Source: Dictyostelium discoideum (taxonomy: Eukaryota). Taken from it: a stretch of DNA of 64,000 nt. Shown here in pieces: positions 1-56,951 of the stretch. The position numbers were made by a program, and so were the translations under genes. The notes beneath the pieces are model-generated. The model searched no databases. It was given only the letters and a program-made list of their open reading frames with translations, and was not told where the DNA came from. Location of the stretch: positions 3,488,001 through 3,552,000 of the forward strand of contig CM000151.3 in NCBI GenBank assembly GCA_000004695.1, in the 5' to 3' direction. Each line of letters starts with the position of its first letter. Within the stretch, counting starts at the first letter, position 1.

Positions 1-33
1 AATTTTTTAAATTGTTTTAAAGATTATTTATCA

Positions 34-2587
34 ATGGATATTATTGAATTTATTGTTAGAGGTATTTCATTTCAAGTACGTAGTTATTGTAATCTTATTA
101 AACCAATCGAGCAATGGAAACAAAAAACCTATCAACAAAGATATCAACAATTCAAGAAAGCATTGCATTTAAATAATGAAGTTTATAAAAGAATCGTTTG
201 TAATGGCGTTTGGAAATCGGAGAAATTAGATTACATTTATCGTTATAAAAGTGACCAGTTATCATTGGTTGGTATAATTGAAAGTGATTGCTCAGATTTA
301 TTCATTTCAACATTATTAATCGATTCAAATAGTTATGAACAATTGGAGAATGTTTGGAGATTAATTTGTAATTTTGATTCATTTTCAATTGCTTCCAAAT
401 TTTTAATTGAATTTTTCAAATTGGATAAGGTTAATAATAAATTAAATTTTTCAATTCATCCATCATCAGATGCAAATGAAAATTATAAAAGAACTAAAAC
501 ATCAACCAATTCAAATTTATCGATTGATCTCGTTAGATTATTAGAGTTTACAACTACAAACTTTAGTATCAATGTTGCAAAACTTTTAATTTCAAAATTC
601 CCAACATTTATAACTTCAATACCATCAAGAAATAGTTTATGGGGTATTGAATCAAGATCTTCGCTAAATCCAATTGAAAATCATTTTAGAATTTTAAATT
701 GTTCTTTTGATTTTAATAATCATCAAATTCCAATTGATAAACAAAAAGATTATATTAATTTATTTACAAAAAATTTAATTCATTTTAATACTGAAATTAA
801 TGAAATTGAAGATTTAATTTTAAAAGAACGATATCATATATCAATTAGATCAATTAATAATAATAATCATGATGATGATGATTATGATGATTATGATGAT
901 GATGATGATCATCATTCTGGTTGTAACAATAATAATAATAATAATAATGATGGTGATCATAATGAAGATGAAAATAGTATTAAAGAAGAAAGTTTAATAG
1001 AATTTTCAAATTATAAAGTTGATTCAATGATTTCAAGATTATTAAAATATAATGCACCGTCAACAACTATTATTGCTTTATTATCAAATTTAGTTTGTAA
1101 TCATATGGGTGTTTCTCAAAGAATTTTAATACTTTCAACATTAATTGAAGAAATTCAAATGATAGAATCATTATTAGTTCAAAATGATAGTTTTAAAACT
1201 TTTATGCTTTGCGAATCAATGGTTTCAACACCAAATAGATGGAGTAAACAAAGTATTCCATTGGTTTTCTTTGCTTATATTGGTAGTGATATTTTAAATT
1301 TAAAAGAACGTCCAATGTTTTATAAATTCTTTGATTTAAATCCAAGATTATTATTATCAATCATACCAGTACCATTAATTTTTAAAACTTTTTTAAGTTG
1401 TTCAGATATAATTAGAAATAATTTTGAAGATGATTTAATTAATTTTGAAGATGATGATTCAAGTAGTGTTAATTTCTTTGGTTTCACTTCAAACTTTTCA
1501 AATTCTGATCAAGATTATTTGTCGGCTTTAGAAACTTGTTTTGAAAATTCAAATGTTTTCAATGATCAACAATTAAAACAAATGGCAAGAAAGCTATTAA
1601 CTTTTTCAAAGAGAGAAAATCAATCTAGAATCGCTGAATCTGAACTATTGGAAGAGTTGGAACTTGAAGAAAAAAGAAAGAAACAAAAACAACAAGAAAA
1701 AATTAAAAAAAGATTAAAAAGAGAGAAAAGATTAAAAGAAAAACAAGACTTACTCTTAATTAAACTTGAAAAACAAAAAGAAAAACAACTTGAAGAACAA
1801 ATGAAAAAAAGAGAAAAGAAACTACAAAAATTGGAAAGAAAAAGATTATATAAAAAACTTCAAGATGATGAAAAACAAAAATTAATTGAAAAACAAAAAC
1901 AAAAAGAAAAAGAAAAAGAATTATCAAAACAAAAAGAAAAAGAATTTGAATTATTAAAACAAAAAGAAATTGATGAAATTAAACAAAAAAGTATTCAAGA
2001 AATTGATGAAATTAATAAAAATATTCAACAAAATCAATTAAAAATTGATGAAATTAATAAAAAATTAGAAATTAAAGAAATTCAAAATTTTCAATTACCA
2101 TTATTAAATCAACAACAACAACAACCACCACCACTTCAATTATTAAAACAACAGCAACAACAACCATCATCATCATTAACTATTCAATTAGAATCAATAA
2201 CACCAATTTTAGAACCAAAAAATGATAATGTAGTTTTATTAAAATCATCAATTGAAACTCCAATTGATTCTGTAAAGAAAATTCAATCAATTATTGAAAT
2301 TCAATTAGAAGAAGAAAATCAAAAGAAAAAAGAAATGGAAACAATTGATGAATATGAAGAGATTAATATTAATAAAAAACAAATTAATAGTAATATGAAA
2401 TGGGGTGGAATTGGTGAACCATCTTGGATTTCTGTTAAAAAGGATAATAAAAAATCAAAATCAACAATAACAACATCAACAACACCAACAACAACAACAC
2501 CAGCAAAAGTAATTACATCACAATTCAAAAATGAACAAACTAAAAAATTAATAATTGAAAATAATAAAAAACAAAATTTAATCAATG

Positions 2588-2659
<72 letters not shown>

Positions 2660-3984
2660 TAAATAATATAATTCAAGATGAAGATTTTGTATCAATTGGT
2701 AAATTTAAATTTAATAGAAATGAATCAAATATATTAGGTAGAGGTTCAAATGGTACATTAGTATTTAAAGGTTTATGGAGTGATAAAATACCAGTTGCAA
2801 TTAAACAAATGCAAAAAGCATTCAATCCACTTATCAATAAAGAAGTTGAAGCATTAATTTCATTAACAAGTAAAAATTGTTCAAATATGATTAGATATAT
2901 TGATAAAGAGGAAGATAAACTTCATGTATATTTAGGTTTAACATTATGTGATGGATCATTACAGAATTTAGTTGAAAGTGGTAAATTAAATGATTTTGTT
3001 ATTTCATCAAACAAATCAATTATTGAACTTGCAAAAGATATTCTCTTTGGTATTCAATTCCTTCATTCTCATGATATTGTTCATAATGATTTAAATCCAC
3101 GTAATATTTTAACATTAATTGGTAAAACTAGTAATAATAATAATAGTTCAAATAACTCATTCATTATATCAGATCTTGGATTAAGTAAAATGGAAGTTGA
3201 ATCATCATATTCATTTACAAGTAATATACCAACAGGTCAAGGTGGTTATCATCCATTTGAAGTATTACAAAGTAAAAGAATGACAAAATCTGTCGATATA
3301 TTTTCATTGGGTTGTATTTTATTTTATCTTTTAACAAATGGTCAACATCCATTTGGTAATGATAAATTATTTCGTATAGTTAATATAATTTCAAATAAAA
3401 TGAATCTAACTCCATTGAATTCAAATCAATTGGCTTGTACTTTAATTAAATCAATGATTTCAAAAGATGAATCAATTAGACCAACCATCCAAAATGTTTT
3501 AAATCATCCATTGTTTTGGAATTTAGAAAAGAAAATACAATTCATTGATGCAGCTTTAAATTTAATTAAAGAACCTTCAAACTCAAGTTACAATTCAAAG
3601 TTAACAAAACAATTAAATCATTGTGATGATAATGATGAACCATTTTTAAATGATTCTTGGAATCATTTAATTGATGTAACCAATCTTTTAACACCAACAA
3701 AAGGTTCAAAAATAACCATTTCATATCAATATGATAAAGTTAGAGATTTAATTAGATTCATTAGAAATACAATTGCTCATCATAAAGAAATTAAAAGAGC
3801 AATCATTCAACAATTTCAAAATCAACAATCACGTCCAAATTTAGAAGTTTTAGAGTATTTATCAAGTCAAGATTCTATCTTATTATATTTTGAATCAAAA
3901 ATTCCAAATTTAATTCATCATATTTATCAACAATTAAAACAATATTCTTTAACTATTGATTATTTATTTAATTTTTATAATTAA
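34..3984 (+). CDS. Ire1/RNase L-like protein: N-terminal region, Lys/Glu-rich coiled-coil, poly-Asn/Gln tracts, C-terminal protein kinase domain fused to KEN (kinase-extension nuclease) domain. Dictyostelium irl (IRE-like) family type. May have an upstream exon outside the window, because the frame is open to position 1.
   Basis: A 1316-aa ORF. Kinase motifs: GRGSNGTLV (Gly loop), [22 protein letters not shown] (catalytic loop), ISDLGLSK (DFG-equivalent), HPF...LQSK (APE region). KEN motifs: [19 protein letters not shown] and [18 protein letters not shown], compare Ire1 HPFFW...LLRALRNKKHHY. Paralogous to the ORF at 52442-56569. Confidence 0.85.
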
Positions 3985-4273: not shown

Positions 4274-4930
4274 TTATAAATCAATTCTAAAAAATTTTCT
4301 TTCAAAACCATATAACATTTCTTGATGATAATATTTAAGACCAGCTTTTTGAATAATTGATAAAGAACCAAAATTATCAATTCTGGCAGTTGCATAAATT
4401 GTATATAATGGTTTTCCAATTAAACCTGGACCGGTTGAAATTAAATGATTTTCTTTTTTAATTGCATCAGACATACAATGTACTAATACTTCTAACATTT
4501 CTGAACCATAACCTTTACCCCAATGATTTTTATCTATTATAATTGCCAATTCAGCTTCACCATCAACTTTACCATACATAAACATTACATGACCAATGAA
4601 ATCATTATTTAATTTATTAAATACCATTAAACCATTACAAACATCTTGATTTTTCCAACCTTCTATCCATTGATCAACATCTTGGTCAACTTGCTCCTTT
4701 GTTTGAACTCCATAGCCATATTTAACTGTATTCACTGGATCACATAATAATTGATAAAAAGTTTCTCTATCTTTAATATCATTAGTTATATTTCTAATTA
4801 ATAATCTATCTGTAATAATTTTAACATTTAATCCTTTTTTTTCTGATTCATCAACTTTATCATCAATATAAAATTCAACTGTAGATTCATTAATTTTATT
4901 ATTATAATTTTTATAATTATAAATTGTCAT
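4274..4930 (-). CDS. GNAT-family N-acetyltransferase
   Basis: A 218-aa ORF with acetyl-CoA binding motif A (HWGKGYGSEMLEVLVHCM) and RimJ/RimL-like organisation. Confidence 0.75.
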   Translation of the reverse strand: MTIYNYKNYNNKINESTVEFYIDDKVDESEKKGLNVKIITDRLLIRNITNDIKDRETFYQLLCDPVNTVKYGYGVQTKEQVDQDVDQWIEGWKNQDVCNGLMVFNKLNNDFIGHVMFMYGKVDGEAELAIIIDKNHWGKGYGSEMLEVLVHCMSDAIKKENHLISTGPGLIGKPLYTIYATARIDNFGSLSIIQKAGLKYYHQEMLYGFERKFFRIDL

Positions 4931-5444
4931 TGTTTTTTTATTTTTTTTTATTTTTTTTAAATATCAATGTTTAAACTATATATAAAATTATTATATATAA
5001 ATAAATTTTTCAGAATTTGTCGTTCGTTTTTTTTTTAAAGTTTGTTTTCGAGTTTTAAAAAAAAAAAATTAAAAAATAAAATAAAAAATTATTTAAAAAA
5101 AAAAACAAAACAAAAAATGTTAAAAATATGGATATTTGCTGATATTAAAATGAAAAGAATAATTTTTTCAATTGAAATTTCAAACAAAATTATTATTGAT
5201 TTGTTTAAAAAATCTTGGTGGTATAATTTCCCAAAAAAAAAAAAAATTAATTTTAGAATTTAATTATTTTTTTTTTGCCTGTTTTTGTTTTAATTTATTT
5301 TTTTTTTTTGACCAAAACACCTAGTTTTTTTACTTTTCAGATTTAATAAAAAAAAAATATATATATATATTTACTACAACATAATATATAGTTATTTCTT
5401 TTTTTTTTGTTTTTAAAAAAATTACAACTTTTTTTATTTATTTA

Positions 5445-5473
<29 letters not shown>

Positions 5474-5479
<6 letters not shown>

Positions 5480-6770
5480 AATTTTTCTAATCCATTCCTT
5501 ATGATCAATAAGAGTTATATCTTCTTCATTTGAAATTGATTTTAAATATTTTGTTAGATGGAATAAGACATTATCACCATACTTTTTAGCATCTTTAATT
5601 TTAAAAGGTGGAACATGTACACCATTCTTTGGATTCATTGCAAAGTTTTTGGAGAGATCATCAACATGTAAAGTATTTTTCATACTAAAGAATTTACCTA
5701 AATGTTGATGTTTCCAAATTACTTCCAATGCTTTTACATTATGTTTAATTTTAGTTCTCTCTTTACCATTGATGGTTCTATAGGTTGTTACCTTAAACAT
5801 TAATGTTTGATCCATTACAAAACAAATTTTAAAACGTGGATTAGTTAATAATCCCAACTCTGTTAATTTAATTTCAATCCATTTCCAACTAGTTTGAGAC
5901 CAAATTCCAATATCATAATGTTGATAGGATTGTACTAAAAATTCTTCTAAATGTGGTCTTTTCATATCTATATTTATTTAAAAAAAAAAAAAAAATTAAT
6001 TATTTATTTTATTTTATTATATTATTTTATTTTATTTATTTTATTTTATTTTATTTTTATTTACTTTCAACATCTTGATCTTTAAAATCTAAAATTGTAT
6101 GATCTAAATCTAAAACTAATAATTTTTTATTTGGTCTTGGGTCATTAATTAAAGAGATATCATTTGAACGTTCAATCATTGCAAGTAATTGATTTTTATT
6201 TTTTTCAATATGAGAGATTTCATCAGAATCTGGGATATAATCAAATTCGAAATCATTGAATACCTCATCGGTATCACCACTTGTTTTTGGAACGTCAGCA
6301 ATAATATTTGACTCTGGTGTACCCATCATAATGATACTATGATTATCTTGAATTGATAATGATTCTATTATCATTTCATCAGTTGGTTGTTTACCTTTTG
6401 ATAATCCTAAAATTTTTTGTCTCTTTGATAATACATTTGTCATTGTTTCCAATTGTCTCTTTAAATCAAAAACTGTTGAACTCTTTGAAATCAATACTTT
6501 ATATTCTTTACCATTCCATTTGGTTTTTATTGTAATTTTTGAATTTTCTTCATTTATTATTGTTGTTGTTGTTGTGGTTGTTTTTGTTTTTAAATCAGAG
6601 TCATTTATAATATTAGTTGTTGTTGTTGTTGTAGTTGTAGTAGTGGTATTAGTTGTAGTGTTATCATTTGTGTTATTACTATTAGAATCTGTTGTTGTTA
6701 TTATACTATTTATTGTTGACTCTGTTGTTGTTGGTGGATTAGTTGTTGAGGATGAAACTATTGTATCCAT
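5474..6770 (-). CDS. UBLCP1 homolog (ubiquitin-like domain-containing CTD phosphatase 1). Two exons, 6770..6065 and 5967..5474, with an AT-rich intron 6064..5968 (GTAAAT...ATATAG).
   Basis: Exon 1 encodes a Thr/Asn-rich N-terminus, a UBL domain (KWNGKEYKVLISKSSTVFDLKRQLE...IMMGTP) and an FCP/SCP-type DxDxT motif (LVLDLDHTIL). Exon 2 (MKRPHLEEFLVQSYQHYDIGIWSQTSWKWIE...) aligns with human UBLCP1 [29 protein letters not shown]. The phase-1 junction gives VE-N-MKRPH in frame. Confidence 0.85.
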
Positions 6771-7248
6771 TTTTTTTTTTTTTTTTTAAATTGAAATATT
6801 GAGTTTTATTTTATATTGTTTTTATAAAAAATAAAAAAAAAAAATTTAAAAAAGAAAAATGAAATAAAAAAAATTATGTGTGCTTTCTTTTTTTTTTTTT
6901 TTTTTAATTATTTTTTATTTTTTAATTATTTTTGTTAATTGTTCATGGGGTTAGAAAAAAAAAAAAAAAAAAAAATTTATTAAATTAAAAAAAAAAAAAT
7001 GAAAAAAAAAAAAAACTATTTTTTAAAAAAAAAAATAAAAAAAAATAAAATAAAAAAAGATAATTTAAATTAATAAAAAAAAAAAAAAGAAATAAGGGAA
7101 ATAAAATATTAAAAAAACTAATTCTATTAATAGGATTAACTAAGTTTTTTTTTTTTTTTTTTTTTTTTTTATAAATTTAATCTAATCCTTTGGATTTCAA
7201 ATAACAATTTTAAATTTTTTTAATTTTATTTTTATTTTTATTTTTATT

Positions 7249-7291
<43 letters not shown>

Positions 7292-7453
7292 AAAATTTTT
7301 TTTTTTTTTTTTTTGAAAATTTTATTTGTATTACACCACAAAATTAGTTTTAAAAAAAAAAAAAAATATCAACAACCTTATACCTACCCTATAAATCAAT
7401 AATTATTGAAATTTAATATTAAACAAATACACATATATATATAAATTTAGAAA

Positions 7454-7896
7454 ATGTCTGAAACTAAAGTAAGTATTTTTTTTTTTTTTTTTTTTTTTAA
7501 AAATCTATTTTTATAAGTGCATTGTTTTTTTTGTGAACTTACACCCCCTTTCCCCTATTTAAATTTAATAAAGGGAAATAGAAATTATTTTATATTAATA
7601 ATAAACTATTTTATATTATTTTATAGCCAATGACCGAAGAAGAAAAGAAATTTTTTGATAAATATGGAAGATTACCAACTCCATCAACACTTTTATCAAA
7701 AAGAGTTTGTATTACAGTTTTAATCTTTATCCCTCCCCTTTTACTTTTATTTAAATATGTTGGATATTAATACAGGTATTCTTTCACTTTTTTTTTTTTT
7801 TATTTATTTTAGGATAAAAAATATTTTGACTCTGCAGATTGGGCAAAGGGTCAACAAACTGATGCAAAAGAAGTTAAACAACCAGAAACCAAATAA
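7454..7896 (+). CDS. Endosulfine/ARPP-19 family protein (Greatwall-kinase substrate, PP2A-B55 inhibitor), 58 aa. Three exons, 7454..7468, 7627..7704 and 7813..7896; donors GTAAGT and GTTTGT, acceptors TTATAG and TTTTAG.
   Basis: Spliced product MSETK|PMTEEEKKFFDKYGRLPTPSTLLSKR|DKKYFDSADWAKGQQTDAKEVKQPETK. KYG+LP...LL.KR and YFDS(G/A)D(Y/W) are the endosulfine signature, including the Greatwall-target Ser. Confidence 0.7.
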
Positions 7897-8265
7897 ATTT
7901 AACAAAAGAATAAAACATTAAAAAAATAAAAAAATAAAAAATAAAAAAAAAAAATAAAAAATTAAAATGAAAAAAAAAAGTTAAAAGTAAAAAAAAAAAA
8001 ATAAAAGAAAAAAGAGTAGTATAGGAAAGATTCAAAAAGAAGTAAATATAAAAGTTTGGTTTTTTTTTTTTTTTTCTCAAAAATAATAAATGAATTCAAT
8101 TGCCATAATAATTAATAATAATAATAAAAAAAAAAAAAAAAAATTAAAAGTAATTCTAATTGTGAAACTTTTTTTTTTTTTTTTTTTTTTTTTGGTATAA
8201 ACAAATAATAAAAATATAAAAAAAAGAATTATTATTTTCAATTTTTAAACCCCCTGTCTCCTCCC

Positions 8266-8302
<37 letters not shown>

Positions 8303-8360
8303 AAACCAGTTTCTTTGAAAATAAAACAATTTCAAATTTGAGCTTCAAAATCTTTTAAAA

Positions 8361-8396
<36 letters not shown>

Positions 8397-9428
8397 CAAT
8401 TATTTTTTTTAATTAAAACAAGATATGTCAGATTGAGGAAATGAAAGTATCTTGTTAAAAAATAAATTTTAAAGAAGATATTAAAAAATTGGTTGGAAAA
8501 TATTATATAAAAATAAATAAATAAATTAATAAATAAATAAATAAAAATAAAAAAAGAAATTCCAATAATCAAAAAAATAAAAAAATAAAAAATAAGAATA
8601 AATCTTTTGTTTTATTTATTCTTTTCCTTTTTATATTTTATTAAATAAATAAATTTTTTTATAATTTTTTTTTTTTATTGTTAAAAATAAATTTAAATTT
8701 ATTTCTATTAGAAATATTTAAAGGAAAGGATTAATATCTTCACATTGTTCATGTTTCTTCGTTTGGGAATTCTTGATCTATTTCACTACAACATAGCACT
8801 TTTATTGAATTGAAAAGCTTGGTTTTTTATTTTTATTATTATTAATATTATTACTATTATTTTTATTATTTTTATAATTAATAATACTATTATTGAAATA
8901 TTGCGAACTTGAATTATAATTTCGAGAAATAGAAACAATTAATTGATGAATCTAATTTACATAATTAAGAAAAAAAAAAATATTTTAATTTTCATTAAGA
9001 ATTCAATAAATTAAGATTTCTATTTCTTAAATAATAAATTTTTTTTTTTTATTATTGTTTTTTATAATTTTGGATCCCAAAAAAGCATCAAAAAAAAAAA
9101 GGAAAAAAATAAAAAAAAAAGATAAAAATAAATAAAAAAAAGGATAAAAATAAATTAAAAAAAAAAAAAAAAAAAAAAGAGTGGGATTATTTTTTTTTTT
9201 TTTTTTTTTTACAGTAGTTTATATTTTATTATTTTTGTTTTTTGTTTGTTTTTATAAAAGATTTGAAAAAGTCTAATTTCTTAATTTTAAACTATCTATT
9301 TAAAGAATTTAAAAAAGACTGATAAGACTAAAATTAAACCAAGTGTTGAATATAAAACGATTCTAAATAATAAAAAAATTAAAAAAGAATACATAAAGGA
9401 ATTAGTTTTTTTTTTTTTTTTTTTTTTT

Positions 9429-11044
9429 TTATATATAGTTTAATAAAACATACTTTTGATTTCTTTCATCTAAATTTTTCATTGGCGTCTTTTGAATAAT
9501 TTCTAAAGTTTTATCTTGAACTAAAATAGTATTACATTTAATAGTATTGCTAATTGTATTGAATTTATTTTTAATAGTATTTTGTTTAGTAGTAGTTGTT
9601 GTTGTTTGTTGATTGCTTTGTTGTTGTTGTTGTTGTTGTTGTTTTAATTTATCATTTAAAATTACAGATTCATAAGAAGGTGGTGGTGGTAATGGTTTTG
9701 ATCTATTAATTACAGTATTTGAATTTAAAACTACTGAACCAGAGTCATTGTTATTACTAGTGATTGTATTATGAATTACGACTGAACCAGTATCAATTGA
9801 ACCACTGAAAACATTTGGTTTATAAATTACAGAACCAGAAGTAGTTTCACCAATATCATTACTACTATTTGAGTTATTATTTAATAATTTACTTAAAAAT
9901 TGTGGTTTATTATTATTATTATTATTATTATTATCATTTGGTTGTTGTTTTGGTGAAACTGAAGGACCAATTGATTTTCTTTTTTTTGATTTTAATTTTA
10001 TAGCCATTTGAGTTAATTCTTTTAATGCATCTGGTTTTGCACTTTTAATAAAAGGATGATCTAATAATTGAGAAGGTGACCATCTTTCATTGATATCTTT
10101 AGTTAAACATTTATCAACGAATGATACAAACTCTGGTGACCATTTCTTTGGATCTTTAAAAGTTGGTGGAGGTCTTCTACCAATCATATACATGGCTCTC
10201 ATTGGATTAACCTCGGAAAGTGGTGGTTCACCATCGGCCAATTCAATGGCAACTATACCTAATGACCAAACATCGATTTTATTATTGTAATCGGTTTGAT
10301 TTAGAATTTCAGGTGCCATCCAATAGGGCGTACCTGCGATTGAACCTTTGGAAAAAGTGGATTGGATTTGTTGAGAGACGCCAAAATCTGCGATTTTCAC
10401 TTGACCAGTTTCATCCAATAGAATATTTGCCGATTTAATATCACGATGTATGATTTGTTTAGAATGTAAATAAACCAAACCCAATAATGATTGTTGAAGA
10501 ATCAATGAGATCTCTTTCTCTTTAAAAGTTTTACCAATCGATTGCATAATATCATTAAAAGAGGAAAGTGAACAATAATCCATCAAGATCCAATATTTAT
10601 TCTTTAACATTATCGATCCAAAATAACTAACAACATATGGATTATTACATTTCTTTAGAATTTGAATCTCTTTACTAATTGGTTCAACATCATTTGCTTC
10701 GAAAATTTCAAATTCTTTAATTGCAATCGATGTATTTGATGATTTATGAATTGCTCTATAAACTGATCCAAATGATCCTTCTCCTAATTTCTCTTGAATT
10801 TCAAATGATGTTTCACCTCCTGAACTCCAATTTAAATCTAAATCAACATGAACTTTATGTACTAATGAATTTGGTTGTGATATATCAATTTCTTTAAATA
10901 ATTAAAAAAATAAAAAATTAAAAAAAAAAAAAAAGTTAATAATAAAAAAAAAAAAAAAAAAAAAAATTGAAAAAAAAATTAAAAAAAAATTTTAGATTAT
11001 AATTTACCTTTTGGGTTTGATCCACTTCTAAATAATCTAACCAT
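9429..11044 (-). CDS. STE20-family (MST/PAK-like) Ser/Thr protein kinase, 499 aa, with an Asn/Gln/Thr-rich C-terminal tail. Two exons, 11044..11008 (MVRLFRSGSNPK + 1 nt) and 10891..9429; intron has a GTAAAT donor and TTTAAAG acceptor.
   Basis: Exon 2 has GEGSFGSVY, IAIK, HRDIKSANILL, DFGVS and the STE20 signature GTPYWMAPE. Exon 1 was found by the in-frame ATG plus GTAAAT donor. The total of 1500 nt is in frame. Confidence 0.8.
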
Positions 11045-11368
11045 ATTTAAAAATAAGGTTTTAATGAATTAAAATTGGAGAAAAAAAATAAAAAAAAAAA
11101 ATAAAACAAAAAAAAAAAAATAAAGGAGAAAAAAGTTTTTTTATAAAAAAAAAAAAATATTTGCATGCCAAAAAAAAAATTATAAAAAAAAAAAAAAAAA
11201 AATCAAAAAAAAAAAAAATTAAAAATCAAAAAAAATTAAAAATTAAAAAAAATTAAACCAACTGACTATTCTAAAAATAGGAAAATATCTTTTTTTTTTT
11301 TTTATTTTTTTTTCAAATTTAAAATTTCCATTGTTTTTTTTTTTTTTATAAAATATATTTATAGATTT

Positions 11369-12451
11369 TTAATAATCATTGATATCTTGATATACATAAT
11401 GTAATTGAATTGGTTCTGTTAATTCCAAAGGGGTGTGACAACAACCAGTTTTTGGAGAGCAAGAATCAATTGTACAATCATTACCATCATCACAAGAAAT
11501 TGGAGAATGACAACAACCAGTTGTTGGAGAACAAGAATCTATAGTGCAAGCATTACCATCATCACATGAAATTGGTGAATGACAACAACCAGTTTCCATT
11601 GAACAAGAATCTGCAGTACATTGATTACCATCATCACAACTAATTTGATTATGACAACAACCAGTTGAAGGGGAACAAGAATCGGTAGTACATTGATTAC
11701 CATCGTCACAAGAAATTGGAGAATTACAACAACCAGTTTCAATTGAACAAGAATCGGTAGTACATTGATTACCATCATCACAGGTTATTTGATTATGACA
11801 ACAGCCAGTTGAAGGCGAACAAGAATCAAAAGTACATTGATTACCATCATCACAAGTTATTTCATTATGACAACAACCAGTAGACTCTAAACATGAATCA
11901 GTGGTACATTGATTATTATCATCACATGAAATTGGTAAATTACAACAAGCACCAGTTGAATTTGAACAAGTATCAGTGGTACATTGATTAATATCATCAC
12001 AAGAAATTGGAGAATAACAACATTCACCAGTTGAAGGTAAACAAGAATCAACAGTACAAGCATTACCATCACAACATTCTACATTTGTATGGGTACAACA
12101 ACCAGTTTCTTTTAAACAACCATCATTGGTACAAGCATTACCATCATCACATGAAATTGGGGAATAAAAACAACCACTAGATTTTGAACAACCATCAATG
12201 GTACAAGCATCACCATCATTACATTCAATATTGATATGTGTACATCCAGTTTCAATTGAACAACCATCAGTAGTACAATGATTACCATCATCACAATTTA
12301 TTTCAATATGGGTGCAACATCCTTGAATACATAAATCTGTTGTACATTGATCACAATCATCACAATCTAAATTACAATCACATAATTCTTGGCAATTAAT
12401 AATTAAAATTATTATTAAAATTATTAAAATAAAAAAATATTTTTTAATCAT
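11369..12451 (-). CDS. Secreted Cys-rich protein built from about 13 tandem Dictyostelium CTDC repeats (C-x-D-G/D-N-x-C-T-x-D-x-C units)
   Basis: N-terminal signal peptide MIKKYFFILIILIIILIINC. Repeats of about 24 aa (SPISCDDGNQCTTDSCS...TGCCH) give 72-bp DNA periodicity. Confidence 0.8.
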   Translation of the reverse strand: MIKKYFFILIILIIILIINCQELCDCNLDCDDCDQCTTDLCIQGCCTHIEINCDDGNHCTTDGCSIETGCTHINIECNDGDACTIDGCSKSSGCFYSPISCDDGNACTNDGCLKETGCCTHTNVECCDGNACTVDSCLPSTGECCYSPISCDDINQCTTDTCSNSTGACCNLPISCDDNNQCTTDSCLESTGCCHNEITCDDGNQCTFDSCSPSTGCCHNQITCDDGNQCTTDSCSIETGCCNSPISCDDGNQCTTDSCSPSTGCCHNQISCDDGNQCTADSCSMETGCCHSPISCDDGNACTIDSCSPTTGCCHSPISCDDGNDCTIDSCSPKTGCCHTPLELTEPIQLHYVYQDINDY

Positions 12452-13161
12452 TTTATTTGTTTATATTTATATTTAATTTATTTGTATTTATTTATTTGTA
12501 ATTATATTTTAATATTATAATTATTATTAATAAAATTATTTTTTTAATTTTTTTTTATTTTTTTTATCAATTTATATTTAAAAAAGATAAGTTGACATAT
12601 TTTCTTAAATTAATAAATTTTCTATTTATTTTATAATTTATTTTATAATTACTTTATTAATATAAATTATTAATTTATTATTTTAAATATTTTTTATTTA
12701 AAAATTTTTCCAATTCCAGTCATTTTTAATAAAACAATATTTTAATTTCTTAAATAATCCATTTTAAGTTTGTTTTATAATAAAATGATACTTTTGAATG
12801 AATTTAATTGTTTTTTTTATTTTTATCACTTTGAAATTCTTTTTTTATTCATTTTTTTTTTTTTTATTTATTTTATCACTTTCATTTTTATTCATTTTTT
12901 TTTTTTTTTTATTTTTTATTTTTTTTTTTTTTTTTTTAATTTTTTTAATTTATTTTTATTTTTATTTTTATTTTTATTTTTTATTTTGTTATTCATTATT
13001 TTTTTTATTATTTTTTTATTATTTATTTTTTATTTTTTCACACTCACACTCTTATTTTTTTATTATTTATTTTTTATTTTTTCACATTCACCCAAAAAAA
13101 AAAAAAATTTGGCACATTAACAGTATTATTAATAATTTCAAAATTTTCAAAAATTCATCAA

Positions 13162-13588
13162 ATGTTAAATCATAACCAAGAAGAAAATGATATTCAAGAA
13201 ATAATATCTGATACTGATTCAGAAACGGAATCAGAATCTGATTCAGATTCAGAGAGGAATAAAGGAAAATTCAGACATAATAGTAGATTTGAATCATGTA
13301 AAAGATTTAAATCAAAAGCAAGTAAATTTAATATTAATAATAGAAAAGAAGTTATTGAAATTAGTGATGATGATGATACAGAAGATGAAGATCTTCAAAA
13401 AGCAATAGCATTTTCTTTAGGTACAACTACTATCGGAAATAATAATAATAATAATCGTTCACATATATTATCAATGATTAGAAATAAAAATAATTCTTCA
13501 CCACCTTTACTTGAAAATTCAATTGATAGAAATCAATTTTATTCAAATAAAAAATCATCATCATCATATAATAATTTTAACAATAATT

Positions 13589-13670
<82 letters not shown>

Positions 13671-13675
13671 TAATA

Positions 13676-13710
<35 letters not shown>

Positions 13711-14199
13711 GATAAAAAAGAGAGTGGTACAATTATTGGTGGAGTTTTAATTGATAAAAATGAGAATTATAAATTTAAACCAAATTCATTTTATTTAAAT
13801 TCAACAAATGAACAACCTAGAATTTGTACAATTAATACATTATCATTTAAAGATTTAATAAAGAAACCGGGAATGGTTGGAGCATTGGTAAGTGGATTTG
13901 CACTTGATCCAGAATGGGTAATAAAAGAGATACGAAAAGAACATGGTAACAAAGTTAAATTTACATTTGTAAAGAATTATAGTAAACCTGAAACAAAAGG
14001 TCGCCATGCTATTAATGATTTCATTACAGTTATTAATCCACCATTATTTAATTATCAACTATATCATTCAAAATTAATGATTTTCACGTTTGTTGATTTA
14101 GTTAGAGTTGTAATACCATCTTCAAATCCAACAAAATTTGATTATTCAGGTTGGGGTCAAACAATTTGGTTTCAAGATTTTTTAAAAAAACAACCAAAC

Positions 14200-14276
<77 letters not shown>

Positions 14277-14506
14277 AACAACAACCACAACAACAACTAC
14301 TACTACTACTACAACTGCAACTGCAACAAATAATTCAAATTCAAATTCAAATAATGAATTGGGTATTGAATTTTTAAATGGTTTAAAACACTTTTTAAAA
14401 AGTTCTGGTGTTGAAGAGTTTGCTTTTTTGGATGATTTTGATTATTCAAATTGTGCAGTTAAATTAATAACATCAATCCCAGGAATTTATAAATTAGAAA
14501 AATCAA

Positions 14507-14569
<63 letters not shown>

Positions 14570-15047
14570 GTAATGATGAAAATGTTGATAAAACAAGTTC
14601 AAGTTTTGGTAGTGGTATTTATACATTACAAAAATATTTAAATCAATATTACAAGGATCAAGAAAATAATACAGTAGTAAATGAAAATCAATCACCTCCA
14701 TATAAATATGTAAAGGATTTATATTGTCAAACATCATCTTTAGGTGGTGATAGAAGTGATTTTAGAAATGTTTTTACAAATTACGTACTATGCAATAATC
14801 AAAATCAAAATTCAAATAATCAAAAAAGAAATAAAAGTGTATTGAGTGACAAGCCATTACATATTATTTTTCCAACTAAAAATTGGATAAGAGGTAATCC
14901 AATTAGAGCTATGACTTCAGGTTGTTTATTTTTATCAGTTAAAAACTATGATAATGATAATTCATCTTTTAGTCATTTTTCTTCAAAATATTTTTATCGT
15001 AAAGATTTAGTTCATCATAGTAAAATTATGGTTGGTACAACTACCTT

Positions 15048-15087
<40 letters not shown>

Positions 15088-15366
15088 AATAATAATAATT
15101 ATAATAATAATGATGATAGAATAAAATATGATTGGGTATATACTGGTAGTCATAATTTTTCTTTATCAGCTTGGGGTGCTTTCCAAAAGAATGAAAGTCA
15201 AGTATCAATTTCAAATTTTGAAATTGGTGTTTTATTATTGAATCCAAATCCATCATTAAATGATTTCACTTTACCTGATTGGGTGAGAAATATTCCTTTC
15301 AATATACCATCAAATTTTTATAAACCAAATGAAGTTCCATTCATTCAAGAAGTAGAATTTAATTAA
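13162..15366 (+). CDS. Tyrosyl-DNA phosphodiesterase 1 (TDP1) homolog with an N-terminal ubiquitin-interacting motif (UIM) and long poly-Asn/Thr inserts
   Basis: UIM: DDTEDEDLQKAIAFSLG. The two HKN motifs of TDP1/PLD superfamily: HSKLMIFTFVDLVRVVIPSSN...GWGQTIWFQDF (human [21 protein letters not shown]...QGIWLSPLY) and WVYTGSHNFSLSAWGAFQKNESQVSISNFEIGVLLL (human [36 protein letters not shown]). Confidence 0.85.
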
Positions 15367-16468
15367 TTTTAATTTTTTAACAAAAAAAAAAAAAAAAAAA
15401 TAAAAAAAAAACTAAATTAACCATTATTTTAAAATTGTTTGTAAATAAAAAAAAATAAATAAAGAGAATAAAAAAAAAGATTAAAATAACAATTGTTAAA
15501 ATAAGGAAAAAACTAAGATTATATTAAAATAATACCCCTTTTACGATTTTCCTATTTTGAATATTTTCAGATTAGGGAATTTTCTTTTTGGCTATTGGAT
15601 TTTACTTAAAATAGTAAAAATTCCTTTTTAAAATTTCAAATAATTTTTAAAATTGAAAAATGATCGAGTATAAAAAGAATAAACTTTTTTGAAAATAAAA
15701 AAAAAAATAATCACTCAAACAAATGTAAAAAAAATAAAAAATAGCAAATAGAAAAAAAAAGTAAACCTGACTCTTTTTAAAAAGGTTTAGATAAAAGTTG
15801 ATTGATTATTTAAATTAAAAAAGAAAAAGGTAAAGTAACTATTAATCTAACTTAAAATTTTTTTTTTTATTTTATTGAAAAAAAAAAAAAAGAAAAAATG
15901 TTTTTCATTATAACAATTATAATCTTGATAATAATATTATATGAATCAATACTAATCAAATGATAGAGAAAGGAAAGATTTATCTATGCACTATATCATA
16001 AAGATCATATAAATATTATTTTCAAAATAATAAAATGAACCAACACCAATCAAATGTAAGAGAAAGGATAGATTTATCTATACACTATGGCATTTTGAGA
16101 AGATGATTTCATTTAAAAAATTAAAACTAAAAAACTAAAAAAAAAGTAAAAATTTTTTTTTTCATTGTTATTTAATTAATTTCCAAATTAGAATAATAAG
16201 AACAAATTTTTTTTTTATTTTTATATTTTTTTTTTTTTTTTTTTATTGAAAGAATTAAAAAAGAGTTGATTCTATCAGAAACATCTTTTTTTTAATTAAT
16301 GAATTATACTTTTGTTATTTTTATTTTTTTTTTTTTTATTTTTTATTTTTTTTTTTTTATTTTTTTCACTTTTTTTTTTTTTTTTTTTTTGAATTTTTTT
16401 TTTTAATAATTAAATAATACTTTGTACTTTTTTTTTTTTTTAATCAATTATTTAAAATAAAATTTAAA

Positions 16469-17086
16469 ATGGATAGTTGTGATTATAAATCATATGCACA
16501 GGCATTAGATTTAGTTAATGATAAAGAATTAATTGAAGAATATAAGAAATATCATAAAAATGTTTGGAAAGAAGTAAATGAAGCATTATGCTCAATAGGA
16601 ATTAAAAAAATGAAGGTAAATTTTACAATTATAATAATTGATTTCATTTATTATTTATTATTTATTATTTTTAATTTAATTATCCATAAAAATTTATTTT
16701 CTAATTTTTTTTTTTTTTTTTTTTTTTCTAAATTTAGATTTTTTTACTTGGAACCCATCTTTTTATGTATTATGAAGCAAGAGCTGATTTTGATCCAAAA
16801 ATTGATTTCCAAAAATATACAGAATTAACACCAAAAGCAAATGAATGGGATAACTTAATGAGGTAAATTTAGATCTTTTTTTTTTTTTTTTTTTTTTTTT
16901 TTATTCCTATAATATTTATTAAATATTATTTTTTTTATTAATGTTGTATAAAATTTATATTTTTTATTTTTAAAAAAAAGAAAATTTCAACAAAAAATAT
17001 CTGATATTCCAGAAAATCAATTAGGTGAATGGTGGAGTCCAATGGATTTAGTTTATGATTTGGATTGGTTTAAACAACAACAATAA
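16469..17086 (+). CDS. L-rhamnose mutarotase-like (RhaM/DUF718 family) small protein. Three exons, 16469..16615, 16738..16862 and 16981..17086.
   Basis: Exon 1 (EEYKKYHKNVWKEVNEAL) matches RhaM EEYQRRHNPIWPELEAVL. Exons 2-3 encode IFLLGTHLFMYYEA...GEWWSPMDLVYDLDWF. Donors are GTAAAT and splice phases are consistent. Confidence 0.65.
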
Positions 17087-17654
17087 AAAATTAAAAATAA
17101 TTAATTAAAAAAAGTAATAATAAAAATGATAATTAATATTTTTTTTTTTTTTTTTTTTTTTAAAATAAAATAAATTTAACTTTTTAAACACACACAAAAC
17201 AAAAAAGAGGATAGATAAATGTTATTTTTTTAATTTTATTATTACTATATCTTGATATTATAAAATTACTATAAAATAATATAATAAATAATAATAATAA
17301 TAATAATAAATTTTAATATTTATATTTTTTTTTATTTATTCTTTTTTTTTTTTTTACAGATAAATCCATTTTTTTTATTTTATTTTTTTTTTTTTTTTTC
17401 TTTTTTTTTAAATTAAAAATTAAATCCACCTTCTTTTTTTTTTTTTTTATTTTTTTATTTTTTTAATTTTTTTTTTTTTTTTTTTTATTATTATTTTTTT
17501 ATTTTTTTATTTTTTTTTTTTGTTGTTATTGTTTTTTTTCTTTATTCTTAAAAACAGCTAAATAAATTATTTAGTTCAATTATATATATATAAAATTAAT
17601 CATATAATAATAAATTCATTAATTCAAACAGAAGAATCTTTAGATGATGATCAA

Positions 17655-19927
<2,273 letters not shown>

Positions 19928-22435: not shown

Positions 22436-25400
22436 TTAAATTGGAAGAGGGTTCGGAGCTGCTGGGGTTTGCCAGGCTTTGTTGAATTTGTATTTGTGAA
22501 GATCTTGATTGGTGTTTTTTAGTATTGCTTCGTCGTGTTTGATTTTCTTTAGTGTGATGAATTTTTCAGTTTCGATGAGATTTAGTAATTCTGTTTCTAT
22601 GACCTTTTGCTCGAATTTTGGCTCTGGTTTGCTTTCATCAGTGTTGAACAATTTGTGACAGATTATCTTCCATAATTGGTGTGCTATTATTCCTATGAGA
22701 TTGGGGAAGATTCTCTCAGTTCTGTTGTATTTTGATATGTCTAAGGTATCCATTGACCATCTTTGGATTTTGATGAATGATAATTTGTTAACTGTTGATA
22801 TGATGGTTTTTTCAATATCTAGGATATCTTGGCATAGAGTGAAGAGGTGAGAATAAGGGTCTCTGAATAGGTGGCCACAGATCTTGCATCTGGTGTCTCT
22901 TTCGTGGTTGATACCTGGAAGTGATCTTGAGAAGAATCTGAAGAGGGTGTTTCTACCTTTTTGGTGAGAAATGCTGTTGATGTTTATGAATACTTTGGGT
23001 ATTGCTGTGTTGTATCTCACCGCCCATAACTTCTGCCATTCTGTTCTTCTTGGTGTTGGGTGTCTGTCTTTGATCATGAGTTCGTAAATTTCTTTCAGTT
23101 TTAGTGGTTCATCATTGTCGTTTCTTATACAGTCTGGAAGTTCATTTATCTTTGGATGGTTTTGGTAAAATTTGACTCTGAATACACCCCAGTGTCTGCA
23201 CATATCGTTGAGGGTTGAAGTGTGGGCTTTTTTCTACTTAATTGCTCCATGTACCATTCTTGTAAGGTATTGTTGTTGTTGTTGTAGTTGTTATGGAGTA
23301 GCCTGTTCATGTACCAGATTTTGAATGCTATATGTCTTAGTTCTATATCCCATAATTTTATGCCTCCTTCTTTCCAATCTGCATATGCTCTGTCTATTTT
23401 CATCATAGTTTTGTATTTTCTCTCTTCTGTATATGTATTCTTAACTGAGGAGAATAAGAACCATCTGGTCATGTTATTGATTTCCTCAATTTGTTCTTCA
23501 TTTAGATTATCCATGTATTGATGGTATGTTAATTTGGATAGAACGTATGTTTTGAGAATTGTCATCTTTGCCTTCATCGTTATTGCTTGTGATTTCCATT
23601 TGATTAGATTGTTTTTCATTTCTTGGATTAAAGTGTTGTATTTTGAATTTAAACCTGTTTTGGTGAAATTGAGGCCAAGATATCTTTCTGGGACTGTACT
23701 CTCTTGGAATGGTAGATCGTGTGGTTTATCTCCTATTGCTATCATTACTGTTTTCTCTTTGTTTAACGATGATGACGTTGCTGAGCAGTACTTTTGGATT
23801 TTAGTATTAATTTTCATTAGTTCTTCTGTGGAGTTTGTAAAGGTTGCTATGTCGTCAGCAAATGCAGTGAGTTTTAATGATTTGGAATTTGGTAGAGTGA
23901 AGCCTTTGATTGTATTATCATTGATGATATCTATTAGAAGTGGTTCTAAAACTAGAGCAAAGATTGTTGGTGATATTGGGTCTCCTTGTTTTGTTCCTGT
24001 TCTGATTGTTATTCCATTGACTAAAAAGTCGTTGATCTTTATTTTGTTTTTAGTATCTTTGAGTAGGTTTAGTAGGATCGCTGTGAATTTTGGGGGGATA
24101 CCAATATGCTCTAATGTTCTTGTGATACTCTTGTGGCTGATTGAATCGAATGCTTTGTTAAAATCGTAAAAGGTAATGAGTGTATTGTTCTTTCTTTTGT
24201 TACTTATTTCTATTACTTCCTTCATGATCTGAATATTGTCTTGGATGAACCTGTTTGGAACAAAGCCGTTTTGAAATTTGTTGATAATTTTACTGGTGAT
24301 ATCTAATAATCTACTGTTGAGAATTTTGCTTAAAATTTTGTAATCTGTATTGAGAAGGGTGATTGGTCTTCTATTTGAAATGTTTAGTTCATCTCCTTTT
24401 TTGAATATTGTTGTTATTACTCCTTCTTTGAATTTTGTGGGGATTTCTTTCTTATTTGTGAGGAGGTCGTTGAAAGCTATAGTCAATATTCTTGCTATTG
24501 AGTTGATGTGGTACTTGTAGAATAGTGCATTGATACCGTCTAAACCTGGAGATTTGTGGATACTTGAAGTTTTGATTGCTTTGGTCACTTCATGTATTCT
24601 TATCGGTCTGTCTATCTCGAGTTTCTTGATTAAATCAACGTCTACTTCCCATTTTTCTAATAACTTCTTGTGGGTTTCTTCGTTATCTTCTTTCTCTTCA
24701 TATTGATCTTGATAGAATTCAACAAATCTTTTTGCTATGTTCTCTTTATCTGATATGGTCTTATTATCTTTATCTTTTATTTGGAATATTGATTTATCTT
24801 TGGCTCTGGATTTAAGGATACTTGTGAGGTATTTGCTTGGTGTTTCTTGATGCAGGTGGAGTTTTAATTTTATATCCCATGCTTTTACCTTTCTTTCTTC
24901 TTCTAATATTCTACTTATTTCTTCATTGAGTTCTTTTCTCATCTTTGGAATGATATCACTATTTCCAAGTAATTTGTGGATTACGTATTTTCTTTTGTTC
25001 TTTTCTTTCTTTATTTTGTTTTGTTCTTTTTTTAAATAATCTCTGATGACATTATTTTTAAATTTCGTCCATTCCTCCACTGATTTGATCTTATCTTTGT
25101 TCTTACTGATTAATTCTGATAACCCATCATGTATATGTTTGTTGTTGAGAATTTCTTTACATAATGTCCAAGGGAGTCTTTCTAGTTTGGTTGTTGTTGT
25201 TGTTGTTGTTGTTTCTCTGTTGGTTTGTATTGTGATTGTGATGGGAAAGTGATCTGATTTGTTGAATACTGTGTTGTGGACTACCAGTTTTGAATTTTGG
25301 TTTAGTAGTGTTGGATGACAGTAGATTCTATCTAGTCTCTTCATTGATCTTGGAAATGTTGGAGTGTTTTCTTCAATACCAGTATCTAGTAGCATGTCTT

Positions 25401-25881
25401 GGTCTATTATTTTACGTAATTCAGTACCGAAGAAGCTGTTGCAATCGTGGTTGTTATTGAAGTCGCCTGCTATTATTTGATGGTTGATTGAATTATATTT
25501 TTTAAACAGTGATTTTGAGTTGATTATGAAGGTGTTTCTTTCAGATATAGTCGCTGGAGCATTGATCAATAATATGTTGATAGAATTAAAGGAATTGTAT
25601 TTAATTGATAGTATTCTACCATCATCGTCTTTGAAGTTTATTGATATGTGGCCTTTTCTTGTATCTCTATTTTCTATTGCTATGCCAGTTCCTTTACCTG
25701 AACCATGATCTATTCTTTCAAAGTTGAACATTGTTTTGTGGTGGTTGAATCCATTGAAATTAGTTTCAGTTAGGAGTGTTAATTGAGTGCCAATTCTTTT
25801 TATCGTTTCTTCTGTTTTATTCTTAGCGTTGGTTGATTGATTACCTCTGCAGTTCCATAGTAATAATTTTAATTGTTCCAT
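22436..25881 (-). CDS. TRE3-like ORF2: apurinic-type endonuclease + reverse transcriptase + C-terminal CCHC-like domain. It is split by an apparent frameshift at 23146-23203 into a 911-aa ORF and a 255-aa ORF.
   Basis: RT motifs FYDFNKAFDSISHKSI, QGDPISPTIFALVLEPL, AFADDIATF. C-terminal CKICGHLFRDPYSHLFTLC. The endonuclease N-terminus starts LLLWNCRGN. Confidence 0.7.
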
Positions 25882-25950
25882 TATTTTCTAATACTACTGG
25901 CAATTGGAAACTTGGTACCATTGCTTGTAGTAATTTTATTGATAGGTTTT

Positions 25951-25985
<35 letters not shown>

Positions 25986-27100: not shown

Positions 27101-27172
27101 TAGCTTCTCTAGGTTTCGATCCTAGGACCTCGAGGTTATGGGCCTCGCACTCTACCCCTGAGTTAAGAAGCT
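27101..27172 (-). tRNA. Initiator tRNA-Met (anticodon CAU), copy A
   Basis: A1:U72, C33 in the loop CCCAUAA, T-loop GGATCGAAACC and discriminator A. Near-identical to the human tRNAi-Met core (GGCCCATAACC...GAGGTC...GGATCGAAACC...GCTA). Confidence 0.85.
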
Positions 27173-45540: not shown

Positions 45541-45566
45541 AAAATATCAATTTTAGTAAAAAAAAC

Positions 45567-45637: not shown

Positions 45638-45682
45638 ATTATATGGAAATATTTGATTAAACAAGAAAATTTAATTATTTTA

Positions 45683-52441: not shown

Positions 52442-56569
<4,128 letters not shown>

Positions 56570-56618
56570 TAAAATTTCACTATATATTAATCCATAATTG
56601 ATATTAATAATTTAGAGA

Positions 56619-56951
<333 letters not shown>

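Follow-up and report, generated by a model that had tools for sequence, protein, structure and literature searches.

Introduction

Two described systems stand closest to the proteins treated here. Ire1, known from yeast and human, joins a signal peptide, a luminal sensor and a transmembrane domain to a kinase domain and a KEN ribonuclease, while RNase L is a soluble protein in which an ankyrin array that binds 2',5'-oligoadenylate (2-5A) precedes a kinase-like domain and a KEN domain. The inactivity of the RNase L kinase-like domain is ascribed to a non-canonical C-lobe and activation loop, its nucleotide-binding residues being canonical (PMC4718504). In the yeast mutant Ire1(D797N,K799N) no kinase activity is detectable, yet the RNase remains responsive to ADP in vitro; in vivo the mutant still splices HAC1, the defect lying in shut-off (PMC3082176). 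In Dictyostelium the IRE family has grown to seven members, six of which are Irl paralogs; all members contain the RNase(L) domain, and IreA alone appears to be membrane-bound (Goldberg et al. 2006, PMC1420674). The kinase domain of IreA is needed for survival of endoplasmic reticulum (ER) stress (2018 review). Here we analyze two of the Irl paralogs, irlB and irlF, which lie in a 64,000-nucleotide stretch of Dictyostelium discoideum contig CM000151.3 (positions 3,488,001 to 3,552,000), hereafter the window.

Both genes have been on record since 2006, together with their motif strings, the RNase(L) domain and the missing membrane anchor, and the motif finding is therefore not new. Table S2 of the kinome study scores every Irl paralog as 'kd, a', meaning a good kinase domain that is predicted active, and lists DLG for the Irl paralogs but HRDIKPHN and DMG for IreA (PMC1420674). 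Our comparison suggests that IrlB and IrlF are members of a clade of amoebozoan proteins, soluble and derived from Ire1, each built from a putatively alpha-helical N-terminus, a charged linker, a kinase domain and a KEN RNase. On balance, we lean to the view that the Irl proteins are cytosolic, nucleotide-licensed Ire1-type RNases, which would lack the RD-pocket/activation-loop switch and would be driven through a divergent N-terminus.

The Irl kinase-KEN module resembles that of Ire1

Two open reading frames (ORFs) of the window, 34..3984 on the forward strand (1316 amino acids) and 52442..56569 on the reverse strand (1375 amino acids), are D. discoideum irlB and irlF, since they match the IrlB and IrlF rows of Goldberg et al. 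2006 exactly, the insert and N-terminus strings included. Specifically, the insert and an internal peptide of row DDB0220009 (kinome Figure S1/Table S2) agree exactly with the first ORF, and the N-terminus and the STNKNN... insert of row DDB0229362 in the same sources agree with the second. Both proteins carry the motif set of the Irl subfamily, namely VAIK/VAVK, HNDLNPRN and DLG together with KEN/RNase(L) and no membrane anchor, and both genes were flagged as lying within the chromosome 2 duplication (Goldberg et al. 2006, PMC1420674). The C-terminal ~470 residues of the two proteins are 70% identical in pairwise alignment. The G+C content of the window is about 20%, and long poly-Asn and poly-Gln tracts are present, as is usual in Dictyostelium.

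The kinase domain of IrlB (2725..3516, forward strand) matches Pfam Pkinase at E 5.8e-34 and that of IrlF (52940..53788, reverse strand) at E 9e-32, and the PK_Tyr_Ser-Thr family also scores well over threshold. The KEN domain follows directly, at 3517..3981 (forward) in IrlB and at 52445..52939 (reverse) in IrlF. Pfam Ribonuc_2-5A is matched in IrlB alone (41.6 bits), and the IrlF KEN domain gives no Pfam match even at E 0.05, because poly-Gly and poly-Gln inserts interrupt it; it is nevertheless 70% identical to IrlB across the KEN domain. An AlphaFold2 (AF2) model of the IrlF kinase-KEN module, built from 14 sequences, reached a predicted local distance difference test (pLDDT) of 78.3 and a predicted template modelling score (pTM) of 0.80, and is confident outside the inserts. 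When this model was compared with the PDB by Foldseek, the best 45 matches were all full kinase-RNase chains of Ire1, aligned over ~470–488 columns with a template modelling (TM) score of 0.75–0.86 normalised to the target. By sequence, the module comes closest, among solved structures, to Ire1 of yeast and human (E 6e-43 to 1e-39, the IrlB kinase domain matching Ire1 at E 6e-43). The module is thus Ire1-like in both sequence and predicted fold.

Both kinase domains contain an Asn/Ser-rich insert between the catalytic loop and DLG, of ~22 residues in IrlB (3106-3171, forward) and ~41 residues in IrlF (53285-53407, reverse). AF2 predicts disorder for it, and the published alignment shows it to be absent from the remaining Irl paralogs (PMC1420674).

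No segment of transmembrane grade was found, the maximum Kyte-Doolittle mean over 19 residues being 1.82 in IrlB and 1.56 in IrlF, and Pfam returned no Ire1-type luminal domain in either protein; for IrlB both statements cover the part inside the window, its first ~133 residues lying outside. The hydrophobicity maxima fall in stretches that contain proline or charged residues. An earlier reading of this DNA, made from the sequence alone and hereafter called the sequence-only reading, had described the two genes as paralogs with an Ire1/RNase L-like kinase-KEN module, possibly cytosolic and without an obvious luminal or transmembrane domain, and the Pfam, PDB and Foldseek matches and the hydrophobicity values agree with that description.

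The catalytic loop changes as a conserved set

As verified on the window, IrlB carries the Gly loop GRGSNG at 2737-2754 and VAIK at 2794-2805 (both forward). Its catalytic loop aligns as HNDLNPRN (3082..3105, forward), in which the HRD Arg and Lys168 are both replaced by Asn and an Arg occupies the position four residues past the catalytic Asp (D+4). DLG follows at 3172-3180, opening a full-length activation segment (3172..3261) that ends in HPFE, the equivalent of APE. IrlF shows the same loop, HNDLNPRN, at verified coordinates 53408..53431 (reverse), with DLG at 53276-53284 and an activation segment (53195..53284) ending in HPVE. The RD-type loop of canonical Ire1 (HRD..K) is thus not present in IrlB or IrlF.

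We searched 1.84 billion representative sequences exhaustively by phmmer with the IrlB kinase-KEN module as query, which returned about 25 close relatives at 42–77% identity, followed by classical Ire1 proteins. The resulting domain alignment holds 150 sequences, 27 of the HND type, in which Asn replaces the HRD Arg, and 123 classical Ire1 proteins. The core of the kinase is retained almost throughout the HND type: G50, G52, G55, K72, E91, H164, D166, N171, D184, G186, E208, D220 and R280 are each kept in 26–27 of the 27. A set of changes accompanies this core, with R165 replaced by Asn in 27/27, K168 by Asn in 24 and by Thr in 3, D+4 occupied by Arg in 24/27, T201 replaced by Gln in 18/27, and APE turned into HPxE. 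Among the 123 classical Ire1 sequences, R165 is found in 121 and K168 in 122, and D+4 is Gln, His or Ala, with Arg in 3 only. The two-by-two count of Lys168 and D+4 Arg over the 150 sequences is 119/24/4/3, which reflects essentially one evolutionary event and is not a statistical test.

The activation segment is likewise retained. Its median length is 42 residues in the HND-type clade, compared with 44 in Ire1 and 18 in RNase L, and its consensus, D.GLSKm.v..Sf.fth.P.GqgGyhpaEV, is well conserved, as is an SS[YF]SF motif in the activation loop. The octapeptide HNDLNPRN itself is identical in 23 sequences from several genera whose overall identity is 42–77%. By the criterion of Manning, a pseudokinase lacks K72, D166 or D184; all three are present in IrlB, in IrlF and in 26–27 of the 27 clade sequences.

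D+4 is the position from which tyrosine kinases (HRDLAARN) and the JAK2 JH2 domain (Lys677) supply the function of Lys168 (PMC4718504). Since loss of Lys168 is coupled to gain of the D+4 Arg, the Lys function may, at the sequence level, come from elsewhere in the loop. The sequence-only reading had called the kinase degenerate, on the grounds of the changed loop and of DLG, and had named a Lys function supplied from elsewhere as something that would speak against it. The D+4 Arg, found in 24 of the 27 sequences, is at the sequence level a candidate for exactly that. DLG is ordinary within the Ire1 family and not a mark of degeneracy, because the middle residue of DFG in the 123 classical Ire1 sequences is Phe in 70, Met in 42, Val in 6 and Leu in 2, and IreA itself has DMG. 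What stands of the degeneracy claim is the replacement of the HRD Arg and of the loop Lys; the retained core residues, the full activation segment and the D+4 Arg tell against it. The catalytic centre is better described as remodelled in a conserved way, and it plausibly keeps at least nucleotide binding and possibly catalysis. On the question of phosphotransfer by IrlB and IrlF, these residues incline us slightly to residual or altered-specificity activity over a dead kinase.

The KEN nuclease site is retained

IrlB and IrlF both carry the RNase motif R-F-I-R-N-x3-H-H, at 3754..3783 (forward) in IrlB, where it aligns with R1056, N1057 and H1061 of yeast Ire1, and at verified coordinates 52649-52678 (reverse) in IrlF. 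The equivalent of Y1043 lies within SYQYD of IrlB (3721-3735, forward). In the PDB search alignment, IrlB thus has the same residue as yeast Ire1 at Y1043, R1056, N1057 and H1061, and the four residues are kept in 25–26 of the 27 HND-type sequences, which bears out the intact nuclease motif noted by the sequence-only reading.

One relative departs from this pattern. The Acytostelium subglobosum protein P0035 (1819 amino acids) no longer has the Arg and Asn of the KEN motif (KCICDTVKHQ), its activation segment is shortened, and it is also the sole member of the HNDLNPRN clade without the D+4 Arg (HNDLNPSN). This single case hints that the D+4 Arg and the RNase site may be kept or lost together.

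Comparison with Ire1 and RNase L

The likeness to Ire1 and IreA extends over the whole kinase-KEN module, in which the Irl proteins share the Gly loop, VAIK, the alphaC Glu, the catalytic Asp and Asn, DxG, a full activation segment and the KEN Y/R/N/H residues. They differ from Ire1 and IreA in lacking a signal peptide, a luminal sensor and a transmembrane domain (with the first ~133 residues of IrlB outside the window), in the loop HNDLNPRN where Ire1 has HRD[LI]KP[QH]N, in the changes Thr201 to Gln and APE to HPxE, and in a long, unrelated N-terminal region followed by a charged linker.

For RNase L, the comparison uses the target strings of PDB entries 4OAU/4OAV (human) and 4O1O (pig), which read HQDLQPQNILID.... 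Like the Irl proteins, RNase L is soluble, combines a kinase-like domain with KEN, and has both the HRD Arg and the loop Lys replaced by amides (HQDLQPQN); licensing of the nuclease by nucleotide binding and dimerisation, as in RNase L, would by analogy be expected for Irl as well. The differences are several: D+4 is Gln in RNase L but Arg in Irl, RNase L has DFD where Irl has DLG with the DxG Gly, and the equivalents of D184 and D220 are separated by ~18 residues without the APE Glu in RNase L, against ~42 with the E208 equivalent in Irl. Additionally, RNase L senses 2-5A through an ankyrin array, of which Pfam and hhalign gave no signal in IrlB or IrlF. RNase L is not in the top 60 PDB matches to the Irl kinase-KEN module, nor in the top 50 Foldseek matches. 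Searched by itself against the PDB, the Irl KEN domain finds only Ire1 (E ~1e-4), with RNase L not among its matches at E<=10, and the resemblance between Irl and RNase L therefore appears convergent. By sequence, the Irl proteins are far closer to Ire1 than to RNase L, and they stand between the two.

N-terminal regions and linkers

The N-terminal region of IrlB (1..1635, forward) is predicted to be all-alpha, at low confidence (pLDDT 35.8), and is followed by a Lys/Glu-rich charged segment (1636..2088, forward) with a short coiled-coil-like stretch near its end. In IrlF, a low-complexity linker rich in Lys/Glu and poly-Gln (53855..54562, reverse) precedes the kinase domain. Upstream of the kinase, no Pfam family, ankyrin included, was matched in either protein. 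The N-termini of IrlB and IrlF are only 26–30% identical and have one block of 132–141 residues in common, with ~29% identity over ~132 residues, compared with 70–78% identity in the kinase-KEN module.

Searches for relatives of these regions returned little. No homologs of the IrlB N-terminus were found, nor any of a 9-sequence profile of the N-terminal module of the wider clade, in a word-indexed search that also missed the D. discoideum and D. firmibasis Irl proteins known to be in the same collection and is to be read cautiously; the 9-sequence profile matched nothing in the PDB at E<=10. Most N-termini of the clade are linked to each other by pairwise similarity, and a module of ~300 positions could be profiled in 13 members by iterative hidden Markov model searches, some runs of which were contaminated by poly-Asn; these did not reach IrlB or IrlF. 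By hhalign, the N-terminal profile of IrlB and IrlF matches this module weakly and colinearly (E 0.13).

Some relatives do show ankyrin matches upstream of the kinase, namely the Acytostelium protein P0034 (residues 67-150; Ank_4 25.0 bits, Ank_3 23.9 bits), P0023 (residues 180-323; Ank_3 30.4 bits) and, below threshold, P0025 (residues 373-434). These three proteins from other species would accordingly present the ankyrin-kinase-KEN order of RNase L with an Ire1-like kinase-KEN module. The module profile is weakly ankyrin-like, matching the ankyrin consensus at hhalign E 0.0014 versus 0.84 for a reversed-consensus control, and the corresponding value for the IrlB/IrlF profile is E 0.93. A regular expression for the canonical ankyrin motif gave zero matches in any clade member. 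An ankyrin-type sensor is thus a lead for the Irl clade; for IrlB and IrlF, which gave no ankyrin signal, it is at most a tentative one. In one further relative, P0024 (1920 amino acids), the Irl part is preceded by FACT-Spt16 N-lobe and Peptidase_M24 domains, which probably reflects a merging of gene models rather than a genuine fusion.

The sequence-only reading had also placed a long Lys/Glu coiled coil and a poly-Gln segment before both kinases and had suggested dimerisation through the coiled coil. The Lys/Glu-rich segment is indeed present in both, and IrlF does have a long poly-Gln run, of 34 residues. In IrlB, by contrast, Gln forms no more than two runs, each of five residues, and a run of 22 Asn stands before the kinase. 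Heptad analysis gave a hydrophobic occupancy of the a/d positions of 0.26–0.33 in the Lys/Glu-rich region against a background of 0.23, with only short heptad-like stretches near residues 657-700 of IrlB and 886-930 of IrlF. For the most part the region has the look of a charged linker or helix rather than of a dimeric coiled coil; with occupancy near background, we rejected coiled-coil dimerisation as a firm feature, and the suggestion built on it proved weakly founded.

Phylogeny and selection

In a neighbour-joining tree built without the motif columns, the HNDLNPRN sequences are monophyletic, forming a group of 24 tips whose one exception is P0035. Outgroups branch off stepwise, HNDITPRN being nearest, then HNDITPQN, HNDVTPHN and HCDIKPRN. 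HCDIKPRN, which combines the Lys with the Arg, could plausibly have served as a permissive intermediate. Named clade members belong to D. discoideum, D. firmibasis and Acytostelium subglobosum, and the HNDITPRN outgroup comes from the protosteloid amoeba Clastostelium recurvatum. Given this spread of species, the HNDLNPRN arrangement is old and under constraint.

Between IrlB and IrlF, the ratio of nonsynonymous to synonymous substitution (dN/dS; Nei-Gojobori) is 0.39 in the kinase domain and 0.66 in the KEN domain, which indicates purifying but not tight selection, with the caveat of an extreme base composition. A value of ~1 for the N-terminal part was discarded, its alignment being nearly random. 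Between the kinase domain and the N-terminal half, synonymous divergence rises from ~0.23 to 0.7–0.8; gene conversion of the 3' half, very fast evolution of the N-terminus and misalignment are possible sources of this jump.

Gene models of irlB and irlF

The irlB coding sequence occupies 1..3984 of the forward strand and is 5'-truncated. Its frame is open back to position 1 of the window, the first in-window ATG stands at 34 and the stop codon at 3982-3984, and published IrlB begins ~133 residues upstream of the window ORF with a peptide that is absent from the window; the gene is thus cut by the window edge.

For irlF, the published model corresponds to two exons on the reverse strand. Exon 1 (56788..56951), which was absent from the sequence-only reading and agrees with the published IrlF N-terminus, is joined to the acceptor at 56480 through a 307-nt GT..AG intron (56481..56787) with a long TTA repeat, and exon 2 (52442..56480) is the main coding exon including the stop. 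This splice reconstruction yields the published junction ...PTNK-IYSGANKF, in frame and without stop codons. A motif, TV[IL]ECLI[HN]LC, is common to irlF exon 1 and the published IrlB N-terminus. The mechanical ORF 56619..56951 overruns the splice donor because a (TTA)n microsatellite inside the intron (56620-56740, reverse) is read as poly-Leu.

Other features of the window

Five tRNA genes lie between the irl genes: Met (27101-27172), Met (30508-30579), Leu-TAG (36835-36914), Glu-TTC (45565-45638) and Phe-GAA (51698-51771), the last ~670 bp downstream of the irlF stop codon. A non-LTR (long terminal repeat) retrotransposon (22436-26762, reverse) lies ~340 bp from the first tRNA-Met (reverse strand), in a stretch where G+C is raised to 32%. 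Its 911-residue ORF (23146-25881) contains an Exo_endo_phos endonuclease and an RVT_1 reverse transcriptase, and a 293-residue ORF lies just upstream; an element of the tRNA-targeted TRE type would be expected to sit beside a tRNA gene in just this way.

Neighbouring ORFs encode a GNAT acetyltransferase (4274-4930, reverse), the C-terminal two thirds of a protein kinase domain that is probably one exon of a larger gene (9429-10610, reverse), a protein with 12 Dicty_CTDC repeats (11369-12451, reverse), a homolog of tyrosyl-DNA phosphodiesterase, Tdp1 (13162-15366, forward), and a TraB/PrgY/GumN family protein (18506-19927, forward). No functional link between these neighbouring ORFs (4274-19927) and the irl genes is evident.

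Discussion

The working model that we lean to would run as follows. The kinase domain would bind ATP or ADP, the D+4 Arg taking over the gamma-phosphate contact of the lost Lys as the corresponding residue does in tyrosine kinases and JAK2 JH2, and nucleotide binding would promote a back-to-back dimer of the Ire1 style, in which, to judge from Ire1, the KEN RNase site would be assembled. With the RD pocket gone, activation is probably not gated by autophosphorylation of the activation loop, unlike in Ire1. The activating input would come from the fast-evolving N-terminal region in the cytosol and not from the ER lumen, and the output would most likely be cleavage of cytosolic RNA. A nucleotide-licensed Irl RNase of this kind is plausible with or without phosphate transfer.

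Several points weigh against this model. Dimerisation and RNase activity of the Irl proteins are carried over from Ire1 by analogy, and the sensor role of the N-terminus is pure inference, no domain or homolog having been found for it; the AF2 model of the IrlB N-terminus, with IrlF as sole partner sequence, was unusable (pLDDT 35.8, pTM 0.27). RNase L, a proven pseudokinase, keeps canonical nucleotide-binding residues without the same Arg and Lys, and residue retention therefore does not prove kinase activity. The coupling of Lys loss to Arg gain is essentially one ancestral event plus a few outgroups and not a series of independent observations, and dN/dS is only moderately below 1, estimated by Nei-Gojobori, which is unreliable in a genome of 22% G+C. 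Additionally, we found in the literature no functional, biochemical or genetic study of any Irl protein, under the names irlA-F or the duplicate-locus names; a 2026 micropublication on regulated Ire1-dependent decay (RIDD) makes no mention of the Irl paralogs.

How much of the kinase chemistry remains is where the nearest alternative departs. The same two loop positions hold uncharged amides in RNase L (HQDLQPQN versus HNDLNPRN) and the Irl proteins are soluble like it, loss of the HRD Arg removes the pocket that reads phosphate on the activation loop, the one purpose of Ire1 kinase activity that is well established, and the changes Thr201 to Gln and APE to HPxE alter the substrate-binding region. 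In yeast Ire1(D797N,K799N), where K799 is the same Lys and is likewise replaced by Asn, a kinase-dead protein has an RNase that works on nucleotide binding alone, which makes such a mechanism feasible in an Ire1 fold. These observations would suit a pseudokinase in the manner of RNase L, one that binds ATP or ADP, transfers no phosphate and serves as a nucleotide-dependent dimerisation scaffold to license an active KEN domain. This was the proposal of the sequence-only reading, and the shared loop positions and the yeast precedent remain in its favour. We consider it rather unlikely, although by no means far-fetched. The yeast mutant lost the catalytic Asp together with the Lys and has no compensating Arg, whereas Irl keeps the Asp, so that the mutant does not isolate the effect of the Lys-to-Asn change. 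Moreover, the D+4 Arg of 24/27 sequences can supply the Lys function, the activation segment, the E208–R280 pair and the DxG Gly are kept in Irl where RNase L has lost them or has DFD, DLG or DMG is normal in Ire1, and the kinome authors predicted the Irl proteins to be active (PMC1420674).

The same D+4 Arg could be read in the opposite direction. A basic residue two positions past Lys168 contacts the ATP phosphates in tyrosine kinases and in JAK2 JH2, and the Irl loop has the arrangement of receptor tyrosine kinases (HRDLAARN-like); position 201 is Gln in 18/27, in place of Ser or Thr, and Pfam PK_Tyr_Ser-Thr scores well over threshold. An active kinase of changed specificity, dual or tyrosine-directed, with signalling as its main output and KEN mainly as a dimerisation or regulatory appendage, would account for this. 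However, the PxxW P+1 loop and the other tyrosine kinase hallmarks are absent from the activation-segment consensus, the Irl proteins stand outside the tyrosine kinase and JAK groups, and KEN catalytic residues kept in 25–26/27 suggest selection on the RNase chemistry, which makes this account improbable. More improbable still is that irlB and irlF, as redundant paralogs of recent origin, are on the way to losing their function, with the motif changes as early degeneration. Their dN/dS is relatively high (0.39–0.66), large homopolymer inserts interrupt both domains, the IrlF KEN domain escapes Pfam, and the genes lie in the duplicated chromosome 2 segment, but both ORFs are long and intact, HNDLNPRN is identical in 23 sequences of several genera at 42–77% overall identity, and P0035 shows what real decay looks like in this clade, with the D+4 Arg and KEN residues lost.

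The model of a nucleotide-licensed cytosolic RNase can also be extended, at a speculative level. The Irl proteins might have arisen from Ire1 independently of RNase L and be its counterpart in Amoebozoa. Their fast-evolving N-terminus, a helical-repeat region that is ankyrin-like in some members, would sense a cytosolic ligand, stress or infection, and the family would diversify as RNA-decay effectors in the stress response or the antibacterial or antiviral defence of social amoebae. The leads are the same two changed loop positions, the ankyrin matches upstream of the kinase in P0034 and P0023, the module's ankyrin match (E 0.0014 vs 0.84 for the control), the N-termini at 26–30% identity against 70–78% in the kinase-KEN module, and the expansion to six paralogs; we regard this extension as unlikely on present evidence.

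Together, these comparisons separate an ordinary feature of the Ire1 family, DLG, from a conserved remodelling, the HND/N loop with its D+4 Arg, and single out the D+4 Arg as the first residue of interest in the remodelled loop. Should the kinase domain license a cytosolic RNase through nucleotide binding, Dictyostelium would supply a genetically tractable, naturally soluble derivative of Ire1, and with it a route to study how occupancy of a kinase domain controls KEN nucleases and how an RNase L-like design may have evolved twice.

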